Positions 9,666 to 44,309 of a stretch of DNA of 57,486 nucleotides are shown one piece after another; the stretch's first letter is position 1, and each line of letters starts with the position of its first letter. The notes beneath the pieces are model-generated. The model did not search any database. It had not been told where the DNA came from and saw only the letters and a program-made list of their open reading frames with translations. The position numbers and the translations under genes are program-made. The stretch is from Nanobdellota archaeon (GTDB lineage: Archaea; Nanobdellota; Nanobdellia; Pacearchaeales; GW2011-AR1), in the NCBI GenBank assembly GCA_038045985.1, contig JBBSXA010000030.1, positions 1 to 57,486 of the forward strand, written 5' to 3'.

Positions 9666-10112
9666 ACTATTAAGCTTTTCCTGGATTTCGCGGAGCTGAA
9701 TTTCTAGATTGTCTTTTGGCTTTATTTCTTCTTTTTTAGGTTTCTGCTTTTTTTCTAATTCTTGAATTTTTTGTCTTTTAATTTCAGAAATTTCTTTCAG
9801 TGTTATTGTTTTTTCCGGTATTTCCTCTTCTTCAAGAATCTTCGGAATTTTTAACTTGGGAAGAAGCGCCTTCATTTTTCTTACATCGCTGTTGAAATCT
9901 CTGGCTTTTTTATGCAGAAGCTCTTTTAACTCTATCTCTGCAACTCTTAGTATTTTGTATTTTTTTAGCGCTTGCGCTATTTTAACAGCGTTCATTTGAG
10001 ACTTCAAAATATCTCGTCTGGCCTGAACTCCTTCTTGATATCCAAGCCTTATATAAACTAAATTTTCGCTTCTCATTTGAAAACGCGAGGACACCAAGGG
10101 TTTCCTTCGCAT
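9657..10112 (-). CDS. hypothetical coiled-coil protein
   Basis: ATG start, charged heptad-like sequence; no family recognised. Confidence 0.5.
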   Translation of the reverse strand: MRRKPLVSSRFQMRSENLVYIRLGYQEGVQARRDILKSQMNAVKIAQALKKYKILRVAEIELKELLHKKARDFNSDVRKMKALLPKLKIPKILEEEEIPEKTITLKEISEIKRQKIQELEKKQKPKKEEIKPKDNLEIQLREIQEKLNSLG

Positions 10113-34330: not shown

Positions 34331-34924
34331 ATGAAGAAACCGATTGTTCATAAAAAATACCTTAGGTTATATGAAGAAACTGCTAGGCAGAAGGTTTTAG
34401 AAGTTTTGTTTAGATTTCCTGATAAAGAATTTAGCCTTTCTGATTTAGCAAAAGAGGCTAGTGTTGCAAAAGCTAATATAGGAAAAATATTGTTGGAATT
34501 GGAGAAGTGGGAGTTTATTTCAGTAACCAGGCTTAGTAAGATTTGGAGAATTATGGCTAATAGGGACAATTGGGATTTTAAGAAAAGTAAAATAATATAC
34601 AATTTAAATTTTGTTTATAAGAGTGGTTTAGTTGAATTCCTAATAGATTATTTCAAAAATCCAAAATGTATTGTTCTTTTTGGGAGTTTTGGGAAGGGCG
34701 AAGACATTGCCAGTTCAGATATAGATATAGCTATAGAAAATGAAAATTCTGAAGGTTATAAAGTTACTGGCTTGAGAGAACTTTTAGAGTTTGAAAAAAT
34801 AATCAGAAGAAATATACAACTCCACCTGTTTAATCAAAGTAATGTCGATGAAGGCGTTTTTAACAATATAATCAATGGTGTTGTTTTATTTGGATTTTTG
34901 GAGGTTAATCATGGAAAAAAATAA
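34331..34924 (+). CDS. minimal nucleotidyltransferase (MNT) with an N-terminal wHTH; antitoxin-type partner of HEPN
   Basis: LFGSFGKGEDIASSDIDIAI (GSx10-DxD). Confidence 0.75.
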   Translation: MKKPIVHKKYLRLYEETARQKVLEVLFRFPDKEFSLSDLAKEASVAKANIGKILLELEKWEFISVTRLSKIWRIMANRDNWDFKKSKIIYNLNFVYKSGLVEFLIDYFKNPKCIVLFGSFGKGEDIASSDIDIAIENENSEGYKVTGLRELLEFEKIIRRNIQLHLFNQSNVDEGVFNNIINGVVLFGFLEVNHGKK

Positions 34925-35354
34925 AATCGAAGAATTAATCAGCAAGAATTCTTTAAGAAGGAGAGAAATTGACTTTGAGAGAGTTAAATCTCTCTTAAAA
35001 TCTGCAGAAGTTACAGTAAAGGTAGTAAAAAATATTTCTTTGAATGATGAAACCGCAACAACAATTTTTAGAGAGCTTTATGAGGCAATAAGGCAATTAG
35101 GAGAAGCAAAATGGTGGCTTAATGGTTACGAGCCCTACGGATTAGGCAGTCATGGCCTGGCTTTAGACATTCTAAAAGAATTTAATGTTAAAAATAAAGT
35201 AAAACTTAATTATCTTGATAGATTTAAAAAAATACGCCACGATGCTAATTATAGAGGAATGTTTGTATCTTTTTCTCAAGCTAAAGAACTTATTGAATTT
35301 TGGGATTCTTGCGGAAAAGAGATTTTAGAGTCGATTAAGAAGCTGATGAAATAA
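34911..35354 (+). CDS. HEPN-domain protein (toxin-type partner of MNT)
   Basis: Overlaps the MNT stop by 14 nt. All-helical, with KKIRHDANYRG resembling the HEPN (PF05168-like) signature. Confidence 0.6.
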   Translation: MEKNKIEELISKNSLRRREIDFERVKSLLKSAEVTVKVVKNISLNDETATTIFRELYEAIRQLGEAKWWLNGYEPYGLGSHGLALDILKEFNVKNKVKLNYLDRFKKIRHDANYRGMFVSFSQAKELIEFWDSCGKEILESIKKLMK

Positions 35355-37197: not shown

Positions 37198-37752
37198 ATG
37201 GTTCCGAAAAAAATATTTTTTGTCAAGGGGGTAGGAAGGCATAGAGAGAGGCTTGCAAGTTTTGAAGCTGCCCTGAGAGATGCTGGAATTGAAAAGTACA
37301 ATCTTGTTTATGTTTCTTCTATTTATCCTGCAGGATGCAAAAATATTTCAAAGGAAGAGGGACTGAAGCTTGTACAACCTGGTGAGATTGTTTTCTGCGT
37401 TATGGCAAGGTCTGAAACAAACGAACACAATAGATTGATAGTTTCTTCTATAGGAGTTGCCATTCCAAAAGAAGGAGAACAATATGGATATCTTTCTGAG
37501 CATCATGGCTATGGTGAAACAGAAAAAATAGCAGGAGATTATGCAGAAGACTTGGCTGCAAGCATGTTGGCTACAACTCTAGGTCTTGAGTTTGATCCTG
37601 AAAAAAGCTGGGATGAAAGAGAGCAAGAATACAAAGCGTCAGGAAAAATTTTCAAAACAAAAAATGTTACTCAGTCTGCAGAAGGAAAATCTGGGGTTTG
37701 GACAACTGTTCTTTCAGCTGCTGTTTTGATTGATGATAGTAATGGCAGTTAG
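37198..37752 (+). CDS. pdaD: pyruvoyl-dependent arginine decarboxylase
   Basis: [13 protein letters not shown]...[25 protein letters not shown] (VSS self-cleavage site). Confidence 0.88.
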
Positions 37753-37786
37753 ATAATTTAATAAATGTTATTTTTCTATCTCTATT

Positions 37787-37846
37787 ATGCAACGCTCATA
37801 CGTTTCAGAAATAAAGGCAGGGAATGATGTTTTACTTAAGGGATGA
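37787..37846 (+). pseudogene. Orphan copy of the aspS 5' end (MQRSYVSEIKAGNDVLLKG*)
   Basis: 55/60 nt identical to 39185-39244 (47/48 over the first 48 nt). The repeat starts exactly at the ATG. Confidence 0.85.
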
Positions 37847-39184
37847 TTAACTATACTATATCATCTTAAAGAAATAGGTTAAACTATACGATATGATAGT
37901 AAAGTTTATAAACTCTGAAATTATGTAATATTCATGGATGTTGAGTCTGAGTTTTACAAGCAAAATCCCTGGTGGGAAGGAAAATTTGAAGAAAAAAGCA
38001 TATCTAGGGATATTTATTTGAATGAGATATTCAGGAATATGAAAAGTAAAGAGATTATATTTTTAACAGGATTAAGAAGAATTGGAAAAACTACTATTTT
38101 AATGCAAATAATAAGGCGACTATTAACCAACACAAAACCTGAAGATGTTCTCTTTATAAGGCTAGACTCTTTTAATTTATTAGAGTATTCAATTCATCAA
38201 TTAGTTGAAGAATACAGGAAAATTCATAAGAAGTCTGTTTTAGATTTTTTTTATTTGTTTTTAGATGAAGTCACCTCTAGGGGTAATTTTGAACAAGAAT
38301 TAAAGAGTTTATATGACAACGAAAATATAAAGGTTATCTGTTCTTCATCAATTGCTACCTTCATGAGGGACAAAAAAGCCAGTCTTACCGGCAGAACAAA
38401 AACAATCGAGGTAATGCCCTTGACTTTCCAGGAATTTTTAAAATTTAAGGGGGCAAAGATAGGCAAAGCAGATAAATCAAAACTAGAAAGCTATTTCAAA
38501 GATTATTTGAAAATTGGTGGAATTCCCCATTATGTCTTGACAGAAGATAGGGCTTATTTAAACGAATTAGTTGAGAGCATTGTCTACAAAGATATAATTG
38601 CATATCATAAAATATCTGGAGAAAAAGCTGTAAAAGAATTATTTGTGCTGTTATGCCAAAGAGTTGGAAAGCCAATGAGCTATAATAAACTTGCAGAATT
38701 ATTAAAGATTTCAGTAGATAGTGTTAAGAGATATGTTGGTTATTTTGAAAAAGCATATTTATTTTATGTGGTTGATAGATATTCTAAATCTGCAAATGAG
38801 AAAGTAACATCCCCCAAAAAAATCTATATTGGTGACGTTGGTATAAAAAATATTATAACTGAATTTAAGGATTTGGGAGCAAGTTATGAAAACCTCGTAT
38901 TCTTAAAAATTAAAAGTAAAAATCCAAATTATTATCTGGAAAATTCAATAGAGATAGATTTTATTACAAAAGATAGCTTAATTGAGGCAAAATATAACCA
39001 AGAGCTTAATGAAAAGCAATTGGAAGCTTTTAACGCTATAAAATCAAAGAATAAGATTATAGCTAATGGATATAAGTTTTTTTTAGACTGATTTTACTTG
39101 ATTAATTTTTTTGCTTTATTTTCTTTCTTTTCCTAGTTTTTCCTAAGCAAATATATTTAAAAAATGTTGTTCTTTAGTGTTTTC
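37847..39184 (+). mobile_element. 1.34 kb insertion carrying only a DUF4143 AAA+ ATPase gene, bounded by the duplicated aspS 5' end
   Basis: Direct repeats at 37787-37846 and 39185-39244; no integrase or transposase lies inside. Confidence 0.6.
37934..39091 (+). CDS. AAA+ ATPase with a C-terminal DUF4143 (PD-(D/E)xK-like) domain, COG1373 type
   Basis: NPWW, LTGLRRIGKTT (Walker A), LFLDEV (Walker B), LTGRT, GGIPHY, and C-terminal EIDFI...LIEAKY. Confidence 0.8.
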   Translation: MDVESEFYKQNPWWEGKFEEKSISRDIYLNEIFRNMKSKEIIFLTGLRRIGKTTILMQIIRRLLTNTKPEDVLFIRLDSFNLLEYSIHQLVEEYRKIHKKSVLDFFYLFLDEVTSRGNFEQELKSLYDNENIKVICSSSIATFMRDKKASLTGRTKTIEVMPLTFQEFLKFKGAKIGKADKSKLESYFKDYLKIGGIPHYVLTEDRAYLNELVESIVYKDIIAYHKISGEKAVKELFVLLCQRVGKPMSYNKLAELLKISVDSVKRYVGYFEKAYLFYVVDRYSKSANEKVTSPKKIYIGDVGIKNIITEFKDLGASYENLVFLKIKSKNPNYYLENSIEIDFITKDSLIEAKYNQELNEKQLEAFNAIKSKNKIIANGYKFFLD

Positions 39185-40477
39185 ATGCAACGCTCATATG
39201 TTTCAGAAATAAAGGCAGGGAATGATGTTTTAATCAAAGGATGGGTTCATGAATTAAGAGTTCTTAGTAAGATGGCTTTTATTCTGCTGAGAGACAGTTC
39301 TGGGATTGTTCAGTGTGTTGTTAAGGATAAAGATGTTTCTAATACGACTTTGGAAAGTGTTGTTGAAATAAGGGGAAAAGCAAAACCTGCCAAAGTTAAG
39401 GCTGAAGGTGTTATAGATGATGTTGAGATTGATGTTTCTGAAATTAATATTTTGAGCAAGGCAGATAAACTGCCTATTCAGGTTAATGAAAAAGCTGTCA
39501 GCTCTGAGTTGTCTAATAGATTGGATTGGAGATCTTTAAGCTTGAGAATACCTCGGTCAAGAGCTATATTCAAAGTTCAGGCTAAAATAGTTGAAGGTAT
39601 GCAAGAATATCTTAATCATAATGGATTTTTGCAGGTTTTTACGCCATGCCTGATGGGGGTTGCTTCAGAATCAGGCAGTGAAGCATTTGAAGTAAAATAT
39701 TTCAATACTAAAGCTTATTTGAGACAGGATCCTCAGCTTCACAGGCAGCTGACTATCTTAGGAGGCATAGAAAAGATTTATGATATTGGGCCTAGCTGGA
39801 GGGCTGAGAATAGCAATACAATAAAGCATTTATGCGAGCATAGGACTTGCGCTGTTGAAATGGCTTTTATAGAATCTGAAAGAGATGTTATGAGAGTTGA
39901 AGAGCAGGTTATTATTTCTGCTTTTGAAAAGGTAAATAAAGAGTGTAGGAAAGAATTGGAGATTTTTGGAATTGAGTTGAAAACTCCTAAAGCACCATTT
40001 CTTGAATTTAATTTCCCAGAAATTTATGATATTTTGAAAAAGTTAGGAAAGAAAATTAAAGAAGGAGAAGATTTAGACTCAGAAGCTGAAAAATTGTTTT
40101 GGGGATATGTGCAAAAAAAGCATCCTGGAACAGAGTTCTATTTTGTAAATAAGTTCCCGTTTAAGGAAAAACCATTTTATGTTTATTGTGATGAAAAAAG
40201 CGAATATGCAAGAAGCACTGATCTTTATTATAAAGGAATGGAGATGTCTTCTGGTGGACAGAGGGAAAATCGCTACGCTAAACTCATTAAAAATGTTGAA
40301 GAGAAAAAAGTGCCTTTAAAGTCTGTTGAGTGGTTCACTAAATTCTTTAAGTACGGAGCTCCAACTCACGGAGGATTTGCTTTGGGAGTAGAAAGAATAA
40401 CAATGATGCTTCTTGGAGTGGAAAACATAAGAGAGGCTGTTTTGTTTCCGAGAGATCCTGGGAGATTGACGCCTTAA
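39185..40477 (+). CDS. aspS: aspartyl-tRNA synthetase, archaeal type
   Basis: Class IIb motifs and C-terminal GGFALGVERITMMLLGVENIREAVLFPRDPGRLTP. The ATG at 39185 matches the duplicated native start. Confidence 0.9.
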   Translation: MQRSYVSEIKAGNDVLIKGWVHELRVLSKMAFILLRDSSGIVQCVVKDKDVSNTTLESVVEIRGKAKPAKVKAEGVIDDVEIDVSEINILSKADKLPIQVNEKAVSSELSNRLDWRSLSLRIPRSRAIFKVQAKIVEGMQEYLNHNGFLQVFTPCLMGVASESGSEAFEVKYFNTKAYLRQDPQLHRQLTILGGIEKIYDIGPSWRAENSNTIKHLCEHRTCAVEMAFIESERDVMRVEEQVIISAFEKVNKECRKELEIFGIELKTPKAPFLEFNFPEIYDILKKLGKKIKEGEDLDSEAEKLFWGYVQKKHPGTEFYFVNKFPFKEKPFYVYCDEKSEYARSTDLYYKGMEMSSGGQRENRYAKLIKNVEEKKVPLKSVEWFTKFFKYGAPTHGGFALGVERITMMLLGVENIREAVLFPRDPGRLTP

Positions 40478-40505
40478 AGAAATTTAGTGGTTGGTTTAGT
40501 ATTGT

Positions 40506-40646
40506 TTAAATATTATTCCATATTTCGTCTTCTTCGTTATCCCATAGTTTTTTTAGAGATATCTCGCTTAATTTTAATATATCTTTGAAATCATCTCTTA
40601 TTTTTTTGGATATTTTCTTATCAGAACTAGTTATCCTTTTTTTCAT
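40506..40646 (-). CDS. tiny ORF (46 aa) between aspS and asnS, antitoxin-like in flavour
   Basis: MKKRITSSDKKISKKIRDDFKDILKLSEISLKKLWDNEEDEIWNNI; below the track cutoff. Support is weak. Confidence 0.25.
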   Translation of the reverse strand: MKKRITSSDKKISKKIRDDFKDILKLSEISLKKLWDNEEDEIWNNI

Positions 40647-40741
40647 TCCCTTTTATTATTTTTAGTTATTTAAGAATTTATGTTAACTTGGGAATTTAGA
40701 CTAACCACTAATTTAATAAATCCCTTTTCTTTTCTCTAGTC

Positions 40742-42037
40742 ATGACAACAAAATTTATATCAATTTCAGAAGCCATGCATAAAAAAAGCGGGAAAGTAGC
40801 TGTGCGGGGATGGGTGTACAGGGAAAGAGGTTCGAACGCTTTGAAGTTCATTGTTCTCAGGGATTCTTCAGATATAATTCAGTGTGTTTTGAAAAAAGAG
40901 AATTTTGAAAAGCAATGGCAGGAGATAGACAAATTGCAGGTTGAAGCTTCTCTTGAAATTGAAGGGACTATAAAAGAAGACAAAAGAGCTCCAACTGGCT
41001 ATGAAATTTCTGTTGAGAAGATAAATATTGTTGGATTAAGTGATTCATTTCCCATAAACAAAGATTTGAATGAAGAGCTTTTGGGAGACAGAAGGCATTT
41101 GTGGATAAGAAGCAGGAAGATGACTGCAATTCTTAAAATAAGAAGCACTGTTATGCAGTCTTTCAGGGATTATTTTAGAGAAAAAGGTTTTTATGAGTTT
41201 CAAAGCCCTATAATAATTCCAGGAGGAGCTGAAGACGGACCTACAATGTTTGAATTGAATTATTTTGGAAAGAAAATGCATCTTTGCCAGACATGGCAGT
41301 TATATGCTGAAGCTGCAATTTATGGTCTTGAAAAAATATATGGAATAGGTCCAACATTCAGAGCTGAAAAATCAAAAACTTCTAGGCATTTGACAGAGTT
41401 CTGGATGGCTGAAATGGAAGTCGCCTGGGCAAATCTTGATGATATAATGGATTATGCTGAAAATATGACTAAGTATATTATAAAAAAAGTTATGGAAAAA
41501 AATAAGAAAGAGTTGGAAATTTTAGAGAGAGATATTAAAAAGCTTGAACCTAGTTTGAAAAAGAAATTTCCTAGAATAACTTATGATGAGGCTTTGAAAG
41601 AATTAAAGAAAAAGAAAATTAGTGTTCCTTGGGGGAAAGATTTGAGAACTATTGAGGAAGAAAAGCTTATGGAAGAGCGCGATACGCCGATTTTTGTCAC
41701 ACACTACCCTAAAGAAGCAATGGCTTTTTACAAACCCAAGGATCCTAAAAATCCAAAAGTGGCTTTATGCTTTGATATGTTGGGACCTGAAGGAAATGGT
41801 GAGTTAATTGGTGGAAGTCAGAGAGATACTGATATTGAAGAATTGAAGAAAGCCTTGAAAGCTAAAGGAGAAAAATTGGAAGATTATAGCTATTATTTTG
41901 ATATTCATTCTTATGGTGTTGTTCCTCATGCTGGTTTTGGCTTAGGTCCAGAGAGGCTGATAAAATGGATTTGCGGTTTAGACACAGTTAAAGATGCTAT
42001 TGCATTTCCCAGGACGATGACACGAATGAAGCCGTAA
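40742..42037 (+). CDS. asnS: asparaginyl-tRNA synthetase
   Basis: GPTFRAEKSKTSRHLTEFWMAEME, GGSQRDTD, HAGFGLGPERLIKWICGL...AIAFPRTMTRMKP. Confidence 0.88.
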   Translation: MTTKFISISEAMHKKSGKVAVRGWVYRERGSNALKFIVLRDSSDIIQCVLKKENFEKQWQEIDKLQVEASLEIEGTIKEDKRAPTGYEISVEKINIVGLSDSFPINKDLNEELLGDRRHLWIRSRKMTAILKIRSTVMQSFRDYFREKGFYEFQSPIIIPGGAEDGPTMFELNYFGKKMHLCQTWQLYAEAAIYGLEKIYGIGPTFRAEKSKTSRHLTEFWMAEMEVAWANLDDIMDYAENMTKYIIKKVMEKNKKELEILERDIKKLEPSLKKKFPRITYDEALKELKKKKISVPWGKDLRTIEEEKLMEERDTPIFVTHYPKEAMAFYKPKDPKNPKVALCFDMLGPEGNGELIGGSQRDTDIEELKKALKAKGEKLEDYSYYFDIHSYGVVPHAGFGLGPERLIKWICGLDTVKDAIAFPRTMTRMKP

Positions 42038-43725: not shown

Positions 43726-43941
43726 ATGAAGACAATAGCATTAAAGGAAAGAACTTTTGAGATGATTAGGGAGCTTAAAGAGAAAGAAAAAGCAGAGTCT
43801 TTTGACAAATTGATAGCAGAGCTAATCATGCACAAAGAAAAGATTCCTAAATCTATGTTTGGAGCTTTGAAGGGAAAAACAAAAAGCTTTACTAGAAAAG
43901 AGAGGGAAGAAATTATGGGGGATGACAAAAGGTGGCGATAG
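43726..43941 (+). CDS. vapB: VapB-type antitoxin
   Basis: 71-aa charged protein whose ORF overlaps the downstream PIN gene by 10 nt. Confidence 0.6.
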   Translation: MKTIALKERTFEMIRELKEKEKAESFDKLIAELIMHKEKIPKSMFGALKGKTKSFTRKEREEIMGDDKRWR

Positions 43942-44309
43942 TTTTTGACACTTATGCATGGATAGAATATTTTAACGCCACAAAAAAAGGGAATACTGTT
44001 AAAACATATCTTGAAGAAGAAAAAATTATTACCCCTACAATTGTTCTTTTAGAATTAAGCTATAAATCAAGCAAAGAGGGATGGGATTTTAGCAAATATT
44101 TAAGTTTTATAAAAGCTAATTCTACTATTGTTGGGTTTAATGAAAAATTCATTTTTACATTCGGGAAATCTTACAATGATATTAAACAACAAGTTAAAGG
44201 CATTGGAATTACAGACATTATAATAATCCATACTGCAATAATGAATGATGCCAAAATTTTGACGGGGGATGAACATTTCAAGAATGTAGATAGTGCTGTT
44301 ATGCTTTAG
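43932..44309 (+). CDS. vapC: PIN-domain toxin
   Basis: IVFDTYAWIEY, ITDIIIIHTA, ILTGDEHF (acidic PIN residues); GTG start. Confidence 0.8.
   Translation: MAIVFDTYAWIEYFNATKKGNTVKTYLEEEKIITPTIVLLELSYKSSKEGWDFSKYLSFIKANSTIVGFNEKFIFTFGKSYNDIKQQVKGIGITDIIIIHTAIMNDAKILTGDEHFKNVDSAVML

Follow-up and report, generated by a model that had tools for sequence, protein, structure and literature searches.

The aspS locus and its duplicated gene start

We analyzed a stretch of 57,486 nt from a Nanobdellota archaeon (the complete contig JBBSXA010000030.1 of the metagenome-assembled genome GCA_038045985.1, a DPANN archaeon; GC-content of 33.8%), hereafter the window, in which a cassette of about 1.34 kb encoding a DUF4143 ATPase-nuclease lies within the 5′ end of aspS, the gene of an aspartyl-tRNA synthetase (AspRS). 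The start of aspS is found on both sides of this cassette: the upstream copy is a truncated gene start and the downstream copy opens the intact gene. The original prediction, made from the letters of the window, had described an insertion bracketed by a direct repeat that begins exactly at the aspS ATG, an upstream copy that keeps the native upstream region and ends after 19 codons, an intact aspS preceded by insert-borne sequence with a TATA-like box, and an ATPase with Walker A/B and PD-(D/E)xK motifs. This description of the locus stands after comparison with about 180 related loci (numbered with the prefix L below). The comparison suggests that cargo cassettes of this kind may move between genomes when one side of the incoming DNA recombines by homology within a conserved gene end and the other is joined illegitimately, a reading to which we give about even chances.

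The two copies of the repeat (37787-37845 and 39185-39243) are identical at 55 of 59 positions, or 55 of 60 with the next base, and at 47 of the first 48, exactly as had been reported. They lie 1398 nt apart and the insert between them spans positions 37846-39184. When the 500 nt flanking the enclosed open reading frame (ORF) were compared by BLAST, the repeat was recovered with E = 1.7e-24. The ATPase ORF is the sole bracketed ORF among the 48 ORFs of at least 120 aa in the window, the other 47 being unbracketed. The upstream copy begins 34 nt past the stop codon of pdaD and reads MQRSYVSEIKAGNDVLLKG, followed by TGA at 37844-37846 (19 codons). The downstream copy opens a full-length, non-discriminating AspRS of 430 aa (NCBIfam NF003483, 458 bits), and the gene of the asparaginyl-tRNA synthetase (AsnRS) comes next. 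The identical structure was observed in L001, L158 and L160, which are independent assemblies of the same population (four assemblies with the window). Because these carry the same structure, the repeat is real and the assembly artefact considered in the original prediction is ruled out. The features of the locus are the following:

37198..37752, plus strand: pdaD, pyruvoyl-dependent arginine decarboxylase, ancestral upstream neighbour of aspS (Pfam PvlArgDC, 8e-62; directly precedes aspS in L079, L080, L082 and L149)
37753..37786, plus strand: native pdaD-aspS spacer with the native aspS promoter box TTTAATAAAT (37757-37766), by sequence comparison with relatives
37787..37846, plus strand: upstream repeat copy, truncated aspS′ of 19 codons and TGA, joint with the insert after GGATG (55/59 to 39185-39243; fragment and joint position recur in L175)
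37849..37912, plus strand: conserved cassette left end with palindromic 23-nt motifs (37849-37871 and 37882-37904) and TATA-like TTTATAAA (37905-37912), conserved in 22 loci
37934..39091, plus strand: ATPase-nuclease gene, 385 aa, with AAA_14 P-loop, winged helix and DUF4143 PD-(D/E)xK domain (Pfam, PADLOC, AlphaFold2 model)
39092..39184, plus strand: right tail of the insert, including the predicted promoter now before aspS (TTTAAAAAAT, 39156-39165; 31/34 to L175, 16-18/34 to native promoters)
39185..39243, plus strand: downstream repeat copy, the first 59 nt of intact aspS
39185..40477, plus strand: aspS, intact, non-discriminating aspartyl-tRNA synthetase, with a recombination breakpoint relative to L175 at about 39520-39540 (NCBIfam NF003483)
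40742..42037, plus strand: asnS, given for context (NCBIfam NF003037; 92.5% amino acid identity to L175)

The limits of the repeat were defined with the help of L175, a diverged relative that carries the same arrangement. Gapped BLAST extends a weaker similarity (24/35) to about 31 nt upstream of the ATG in the window. In L175, the regions preceding the upstream and downstream ATG match at 15 of 34 positions. The downstream pre-ATG region is 31/34 identical between the window and L175, and it matches the native aspS promoters of the relatives at 16-18 of 34 positions, which is the level expected by chance. Since this comparison indicates that the region before the downstream copy is a different type of sequence, the secure repeat starts at the aspS ATG, as had been proposed, and the intact aspS appears to be driven by a predicted promoter that arrived with the insert. 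A 90-nt repeat including the promoter (37756-37845 and 39155-39243) was dropped because L175 reveals the downstream promoter as another type of sequence; this also invalidates a Poisson test on the window alone, whose neutral reference was that stretch of non-coding DNA.

We scanned metagenome contigs encoding AspRS and obtained 80 loci. In the closest loci whose upstream side is covered (L079, L080, L082 and L149; AspRS 73-78% identical), pdaD is followed by 36-45 nt and a single aspS, and the ATPase gene is absent. The segment duplicated in the window is host sequence and is single-copy in these four relatives. The truncated copy of the window keeps the exact native pdaD-aspS junction, including a conserved box, ATAATTTAATAAAT, which forms the first 14 nt of the spacer and is identical at the same position in the single-copy relatives; over its 34 nt, the spacer matches those of the single-copy relatives and of the upstream copy of L175 at 21-26 positions. 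These comparisons show that the 5′ end of aspS has indeed received an insertion. The GC-content of the cassette (28-29%; 29% for the ATPase gene) is lower than that of the flanking genes (36-39%). Genomes with ATPases at 86-90% identity share their other genes at 30-56%. An exact look-up of PdaD for an empty site in the same species returned five contigs, and the cassette was present in all three distinct places among the matches listed.

The closest relative of the ATPase (P0003, 91% amino acid identity) sits on L175 at the same site and in the same architecture: a native-type promoter box, a 19-codon remnant (MQRTYVSEVKAGNEVTLNG and a stop codon), the cassette, the intact aspS and asnS (84% nucleotide identity). 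The nucleotide identity between the window and L175 is 75-96% from the pdaD stop codon to nucleotide 340 of aspS (81-96% in the cassette and 75-88% in the first ~340 nt of aspS), 45-64% in the rest of aspS and 79-88% in asnS. The AspRS of L175 (L175:5217-6479) is chimeric: its residues 1-113 are 85% identical to the window, and in the catalytic part it shares only about 44% identity with each AspRS compared. The catalytic part of the window's AspRS is 80-84% identical to its relatives. The breakpoint (window equivalent ~39520-39540) falls where the OB domain meets the catalytic domain. Because the identity to L175 drops after about nucleotide 340 while that of asnS recovers, aspS is a recombination mosaic between lineages. 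L175 is devoid of pdaD and just the last ~9 nt of this gene survive, beside unrelated DNA. In their coding part, the repeat copies differ at four positions within the window and at nine within L175, compared to 12-14 positions between orthologous copies across the two genomes. That copies within a genome are closer than orthologous copies points to gene conversion between them.

In L020 (ATPase 77% and AspRS 74% identical), the cassette lies directly upstream of aspS and no duplication is detectable, which is a donor-type arrangement. An L020-like donor for the window was nevertheless rejected, as the N-terminus of the window's AspRS is nearer to those of L079 and L080. L020 also contains a 115-aa ORF between aspS and asnS (L020:3519-7987), which by eye looked MazF-like. 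In L085, a PIN cassette (L085:1940-2686) is bracketed by a duplicated asnS start, and the aspS-asnS neighbourhood is a recurrent insertion site. In the window, the aspS-asnS spacer (40478-40741) holds a 46-aa ORF on the minus strand (40506-40646).

Genes of addiction type are present near the cassette, according to the annotation of the sister contig L001: an MNT-like nucleotidyltransferase with a partner ORF (window 34331-35354) and, after a 71-aa ORF, a gene with a PIN domain (window ~43726-44309). Neither of them is bracketed by repeats. Elsewhere in the window, Rfam reports a 147-nt tRNA match on the minus strand (2007-2153; 46 bits) for which ARAGORN gave no call; this is probably an intron-containing tRNA.

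The cassette and its ATPase-nuclease

The DNA homology between the cassettes of different genomes extends from -85 to -90 before the ATPase ATG through a few nucleotides after the stop codon (~1.25 kb). The left end of the cassette consists of two 23-nt palindromic motifs with the consensus ACTATACGAT-N3-CATCGTAAAG, which are found at a fixed spacing of 33 nt in 22 loci, and the second palindrome abuts a TATA-like TTTAWAAA located about 25 nt before the ATPase ATG. The paired palindromes co-vary within each cassette, symmetrically across each palindrome (window 37849-37904 and 21 related loci), with TACGAT..ATCGTA in some cassettes versus TGCTAT..ATAGCA in others. Because the copies co-vary symmetrically, this pattern suggests a putative operator for a dimeric DNA-binding protein that would co-evolve with its binder, plausibly the winged helix of the cassette's own protein. 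The paired palindromes and the TATA-like box thus probably represent a candidate operator pair and the promoter of the ATPase gene.

No terminal inverted repeats pair the two ends of the cassette and no conserved right end was found among the compared cassettes, in which 0-90 nt of variable filler separate the core from the repeats. Indeed, the right tail of the window's insert (39092..39184) is absent from the other cassettes of the 90% group. The ATPase gene is the only ORF of the cassette, which encodes neither an integrase nor a transposase, and the precomputed Pfam annotation of the sister contig L001 contains no integrase up to 10 kb away in either direction. We found no attC-like hairpin on either strand (folding z = -0.8 to +1.1) and no common att sequence: the repeats of different loci do not match one another, and only orthologous insertions do.

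The ATPase presents matches to the Pfam families AAA_14 (8e-27; 94.2 bits for a cut-off of 27) and DUF4143 (1e-18; 67.9 bits for a cut-off of 28.1). The Walker A (T45-G-x-R-R-x-G-K-T53) and Walker B (F109-x-D-E112) motifs, as well as the PD-(D/E)xK set (E319, D342 and E351-x-K353), are conserved at 95% or more in 70 homologues of 31-100% identity. DUF4143 has been assigned to the PD-(D/E)XK superfamily, with its function unknown (PMC3424549), and COG1373 is among the genes shared by horizontal transfer in gut bacteria (PMC10782964). By its match to the PADLOC profile PDC-S01 (PDLC04787; 2.2e-74; residues 19-349), the ATPase is a predicted member of this single-gene candidate defence family. 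We modeled the protein with AlphaFold2 (pLDDT 79; pTM 0.80). The top PDB matches of this model in Foldseek were CED-4, Apaf-1, Dark and Avs5, with a probability of ~1.0 and E ~1e-5, but the TM-scores were just ~0.4; Orc1/Cdc6 also matched, and the middle domain matched MarR-type winged helices. A C-terminal repeat or sensor domain is absent from this protein of 385 aa, which ends in the nuclease domain. The protein seems to be a small ATPase of STAND-like type that bears a conserved PD-(D/E)xK nuclease, and neither its sequence nor its fold resembles a known recombinase.

Searches with the ATPase gave no match among PDB sequences, no meaningful match in PHROGs and no model in NCBIfam. The phage and plasmid collections contain just distant relatives (25-37% identity), which are carried by 265 plasmids. 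The support for a predicted role in defence comes from co-location of the gene with toxin-antitoxin, HEPN/MNT and AbiE genes in arrays. In the literature searched, we found no description of mobility for DUF4143/COG1373 genes, nor of an arrangement of this kind for DUF4143 genes or for DPANN archaea.

Within the ATPase gene of the window, five single-nucleotide polymorphisms are clustered in 15 nt (38662-38676; four synonymous and one Met-to-Thr); no other position differs between the window and L001 across 21 kb. These polymorphisms recur in the comparisons with L158 and L160, over shorter stretches, and the Thr variant is present in L005 and L008. This cluster is suggestive of a very short tract of gene conversion, copied from a different allele of the ATPase gene.

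Bracketed genes in related genomes

The ATPase family is represented in DPANN archaea by more than 120 protein clusters at 74-92% identity. We compared the DNA upstream and downstream of the gene in 76 genomic loci of ATPase homologues and found direct repeats of 30-217 nt (77-100% identity) around most of the close homologues. With a fixed test of bracketing (600-nt flanks; E below 1e-4), 14 of the 29 close homologues (at least 60% identity) were bracketed, compared to three of the 28 distant homologues and two of the 190 ordinary ORFs of the same contigs (14/29 versus 2/190; Fisher, P ~2e-12). The two bracketed control ORFs are another DUF4143 ATPase and a Fic gene. L059 was left out of these statistics, as its repeat includes a CRISPR leader and repeat. 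The original prediction had asked whether other DUF4143 copies in this genome are bracketed by duplicated gene ends; across the related genomes, other copies of the family very often are, by duplicated ends of host genes, which supports this part of it.

The repeats are specific to each locus, and those that are coding correspond to the ends of host genes: the 5′ ends of the genes encoding AspRS, a GTPase and an M14 peptidase, and the 3′ ends of those encoding LysRS, CysRS, an exosortase and HsdS. Several loci present three or more copies of one host-derived repeat, which form arrays of the type X-ATPase-X-other genes-X. An unbiased self-comparison of 1.15 Mb revealed further bracketed segments. 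Outside the window, the bracketed cargo includes HEPN/MNT pairs, AbiEii, ParE, PIN, Fic, WYL and GNAT genes and two more divergent DUF4143 ATPases. In L085, the PIN cassette lies between the two copies of the duplicated asnS start, and the contig carries no ATPase. Because unrelated cargo is bracketed in the same way, including on this ATPase-free contig, the bracket appears to stem from the way in which accessory genes enter these genomes and not to be specific to the ATPase. Recent jumping of the cassettes was considered and rejected: the exact proteins P0009 and P0055 are found on 13 contigs each, from many samples, and none of these places them in a second context.

Several of these loci have an elaborate organization. 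One array (L025:1641-11749) combines three HEPN/MNT modules with three AAA_14/DUF4143 ATPases that differ from one another, and between them lie copies of the M14 peptidase gene's promoter and 5′ end. On a deltaproteobacterial contig (L059:5785-8789), an ATPase and a gene pair, which from its N-terminal sequences is presumably VapBC-like, are bracketed by a 97-nt duplication that is apparently the leader end and first repeat of a CRISPR array with 37-nt repeats. A repeat of ~45 nt common to two related genomes flanks an ATPase in one (L019:1447-1554 and 2844-2954) and a Fic gene in the other (L021:8406-8467 and 10042-10098). Finally, the P0055 locus (L165:5001-8629) presents an ATPase followed by a Bro-N gene and then by another ATPase, related and of the ATPase_2/AAA_14/DUF234 type, in an arrangement that is unchanged on the ten contigs listed, from several samples.

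Origin of the bracket and comparison with known systems

If the repeat had been duplicated at insertion and its truncated copy had drifted neutrally, nonsynonymous relative to synonymous differences between the copies (pN/pS) would be expected to reach at least (1+omega)/2, or ~0.5. Across 12 curated cases (342 codons), the truncated and intact copies present a pS of 0.29 and a pN of 0.05, which yields a pN/pS of 0.17 (bootstrap 95% confidence interval 0.11-0.26); no replicate reached 0.5. The ratio is 0.08 for the subset of tRNA synthetases. In five independent cases (aspS, asnS in L085, lysS in L030, cysS in L017 and an exosortase gene in L021), the similarity of the copies ends 0-4 nt from a start or stop codon. 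Each fragment of a 3′ end still terminates in frame where the intact gene does, with a stop codon of its own, which in L017 is a different one (TAA versus TGA). Boundaries that follow the coding sequence are the aspect that two diverged orthologues would present when aligned, and a staggered cut offers no reason for them. Because the repeat ends where the coding sequence ends and because the differences are mostly synonymous, these patterns fit recombination between diverged alleles and not a cut-and-fill duplication.

We propose the following scenario. The insert would be a cargo cassette, i.e., a self-contained unit (putative operator pair, promoter and ATPase-nuclease gene) followed by a short tail with a foreign aspS promoter. 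It would most likely have entered on DNA of a related archaeon in which the cassette already immediately preceded aspS. On one side, the incoming DNA would have recombined by homology inside the conserved coding sequence of aspS; on the other, it would have been joined illegitimately after codon 19 of the resident gene. This process would correspond to homology-facilitated illegitimate recombination (HFIR) or, equivalently, to the single crossover of a circularised fragment. Its product would present, in order, the resident promoter, the 19-codon remnant, the cassette, the imported promoter and the intact aspS, and the repeat would start at the ATG because the likeness between donor and recipient begins there. 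The structure would then have been stable and inherited, or passed on as a block as in L175, while its repeat copies underwent gene conversion. The order of events, the donor arrangement and the role of the ATPase, which would be cargo (a candidate defence or addiction gene) rather than a recombinase, are what we infer here.

Several observations count for this scenario. A single aspS lies beside pdaD in the relatives, and the remnant keeps the native junction. The sequence before the intact aspS is of another type and travels with the insert. The boundaries lie at coding-sequence ends, pN/pS is low, aspS is a mosaic and unrelated cargo is bracketed alike, often in arrays of the form X-cassette-X-cassette-X. 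The low GC-content of the cassette, an ATPase identity far above that of other shared genes and the donor-type arrangement of L020 are also in its favour, as is the fact that single-crossover integration and HFIR are known from experiments in bacteria. Other points weigh against it. No donor sequence was found, and L020 itself, which is too distant, is not the donor. Four of the 12 curated cases (L021, L024, L025 and L026) present stops, indels and similar pN and pS, as simple decay predicts. The window alone, with four differences (three synonymous and one Leu/Ile), gives P ~0.14, which is not significant. A low pN/pS could also result if, following a de novo duplication, a foreign allele had replaced the end of the intact gene. 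The model leaves the first linkage of a cassette to a new gene unexplained, and the sharp conservation of the cassette left end at the first palindrome could reflect a specific end-recognition step. Finally, we know of no demonstration of HFIR in DPANN archaea.

The main rival is that a host process, either template switching during replication or microhomology-mediated repair copying foreign DNA into a broken fork, duplicated the gene end de novo, and that the intact gene end subsequently underwent allelic replacement and gene conversion. We regard this as unlikely, yet deserving of some weight. It covers the variable length of the repeats, their undefined ends and their independence from the type of cargo, and it draws on processes for which the locus offers documented cases: allelic replacement inside aspS and copies that evolve in concert, with 4 and 9 differences in the same genome versus 12-14 between genomes. 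The plain decay of some cases and the codon test would both be explained. What it does not predict are boundaries at start or stop codons in five independent cases, retained stop codons, or a different promoter correctly placed before the ATG, and it needs two steps where anchored recombination needs one. More doubtful is the proposal that the cassette mobilises itself as a single-gene element: its ATPase-nuclease would bind the palindromes of its own left end, make widely staggered cuts in the target and insert, and fill-in would leave long and variable duplications. The enrichment of flanking repeats is indeed family-specific (14/29 versus 2/190, one of the two controls being itself a DUF4143 ATPase), and bracketing also occurs in divergent paralogues, in Nanohaloarchaeota and around a few bacterial homologues (L025, L052, L056 and L058). 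The nuclease and ATPase residues are conserved, as is the left end with its two co-varying palindromes, and the repeat abuts this end in the window, L003 and L019. In the arrays of L017, L024 and L026, moreover, no cassette lies farther from the intact gene than that of the ATPase, which was maybe the first to arrive; long variable duplications are mechanistically possible, as in IS1634-family elements. Yet the same bracket surrounds non-ATPase cargo, even on the ATPase-free contig L085; inverted termini and a conserved right end are lacking, with variable filler between core and repeat; the boundaries lie at start and stop codons and the differences are mostly synonymous; P0009 and P0055 (13 contigs each) occur in one context only; the fold is closer to STAND/Orc NTPases than to recombinases; and the 57-kb window holds a single copy of the cassette. 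The suggestion of the original prediction that the ATPase-nuclease inserts itself is not supported; it is contradicted by the bracketing of unrelated cargo, the lack of defined ends, the codon comparison and the position of the boundaries. A related idea is that DUF4143 cassettes are autonomous selfish elements, whose protein binds the left-end palindromes, cuts by conserved gene ends and provokes the recombination that installs the cassette, and later addiction genes, while the host gene is regenerated. We consider this about as doubtful as self-insertion; if true, the family would drive the arrays instead of being merely their commonest cargo.

The original prediction had also taken the repeat for the att core of a site-specific integration. 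In such a case, the cassette would be what is left of an integrative element, or a satellite of one, mobilised by a site-specific recombinase acting in trans, and the repeat an att site with an element-borne replacement gene end. The geometry resembles attL and attR at a gene end with a replacement start and promoter, arrays at one gene end recall tandem integrations, and a perfectly identical core of 33 nt might serve as the crossover region. This interpretation nonetheless seems to us very unlikely. No integrase or transposase is found in the cassette or within 10 kb on each side, and there is no fixed right end. The repeat differs at every locus, so that each cassette would need a new att mimic, and repeats of up to 217 nt with 77-100% identity are found without an attC-like hairpin (z = -0.8 to +1.1). 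That the gene order is ancestral and the repeat due to chance or artefact is barely conceivable: the linkage of ATPase and aspS is common to the window, L175 and L020, but the repeat (E = 1.7e-24) is reproduced in independent assemblies, and the four relatives with an empty site, together with the remnant that keeps the pdaD-aspS junction, refute this order.

If cassettes are acquired through anchored recombination, this has implications for DPANN archaea, whose genomes are tiny and contain few known mobile-element enzymes, yet display patchy sets of defence and addiction genes. Our results suggest a recombinase-free route of acquisition in which the conserved ends of housekeeping genes, notably aminoacyl-tRNA synthetase genes, serve as homology arms for incoming DNA. 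The truncated gene end left as a scar would be a simple computational signature of recently acquired genes in uncultured archaea, and integron-like arrays would result. The process also predicts chimeric housekeeping genes such as the aspS of L175. The DUF4143 ATPase-nuclease family, with its conserved putative operator pair, would be the most frequent passenger.

The arrangement shares only some of the properties of known mobile elements. IS1634-family insertion sequences generate long and variable direct target duplications, from tens to hundreds of bp, and possess a DDE transposase, inverted ends and duplications that are identical when made. The cassette differs in having no DDE transposase and no inverted ends, and its repeat copies are not of the identical-when-made type. 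A transposon or insertion sequence was rejected on these grounds, the repeats being 30-217 nt long with allele-like differences and the exact proteins tested occurring in one context each. Free-standing homing endonuclease genes encode a nuclease that cleaves the allele lacking the gene, and they are copied in by repair without target duplication. The nuclease residues of the ATPase are conserved, and homing alone would not create the duplication observed here. Integron cassette arrays, including archaeal ones (PMC9668308), similarly consist of single-gene cassettes separated by repeats that resemble each other within a genome, with a cargo rich in toxin-antitoxin, defence and acetyltransferase genes. 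Here, by contrast, the repeats are pieces of host genes and not attC hairpins, there is no IntI and the cassettes are in mixed orientations. An integron or attC reading was rejected for the lack of hairpin and integrase, the repeat being coding sequence of aspS. As for the protein, it resembles the Avs-family STAND defence proteins and PDC-S01 in its predicted combination of a P-loop NTPase, helical and winged-helix modules and a nuclease effector; the ATPase differs by its 385 aa, the lack of a repeat-type sensor domain, the C-terminal position of its nuclease and a defence role that is predicted only.

The closest parallels are recombination products. In E. coli, the single-crossover integration of a molecule with one homologous segment produces duplications of 109-950 bp of this segment around the foreign DNA (PMC3240628). 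According to references cited in PMC5361080, HFIR or single-crossover integration has been shown experimentally in Acinetobacter, S. pneumoniae and P. stutzeri, and the same paper proposes HFIR as the builder of the arrays of displaced modules at type VI secretion system (T6SS) and Rhs loci. In the orphan arrays of T6SS effector-immunity and Rhs/contact-dependent inhibition genes (PMC5361080), modules are likewise added by a conserved part of a gene, and older modules and remnants are pushed aside. Their anchor is the conserved part of the toxin gene and their cargo its variable tip with an immunity gene, whereas the anchors found here are unrelated housekeeping genes (aminoacyl-tRNA synthetase genes, a GTPase gene) and the cargo consists of free-standing defence and addiction genes. 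As in HFIR and single crossover, the insertion would combine one homologous anchor with one non-homologous end and would need no element-encoded recombinase. It differs from them in that the process is deduced from natural DPANN genomes, with ends of housekeeping genes of ~30-217 nt as anchors and products that are long-lived and organized in arrays.

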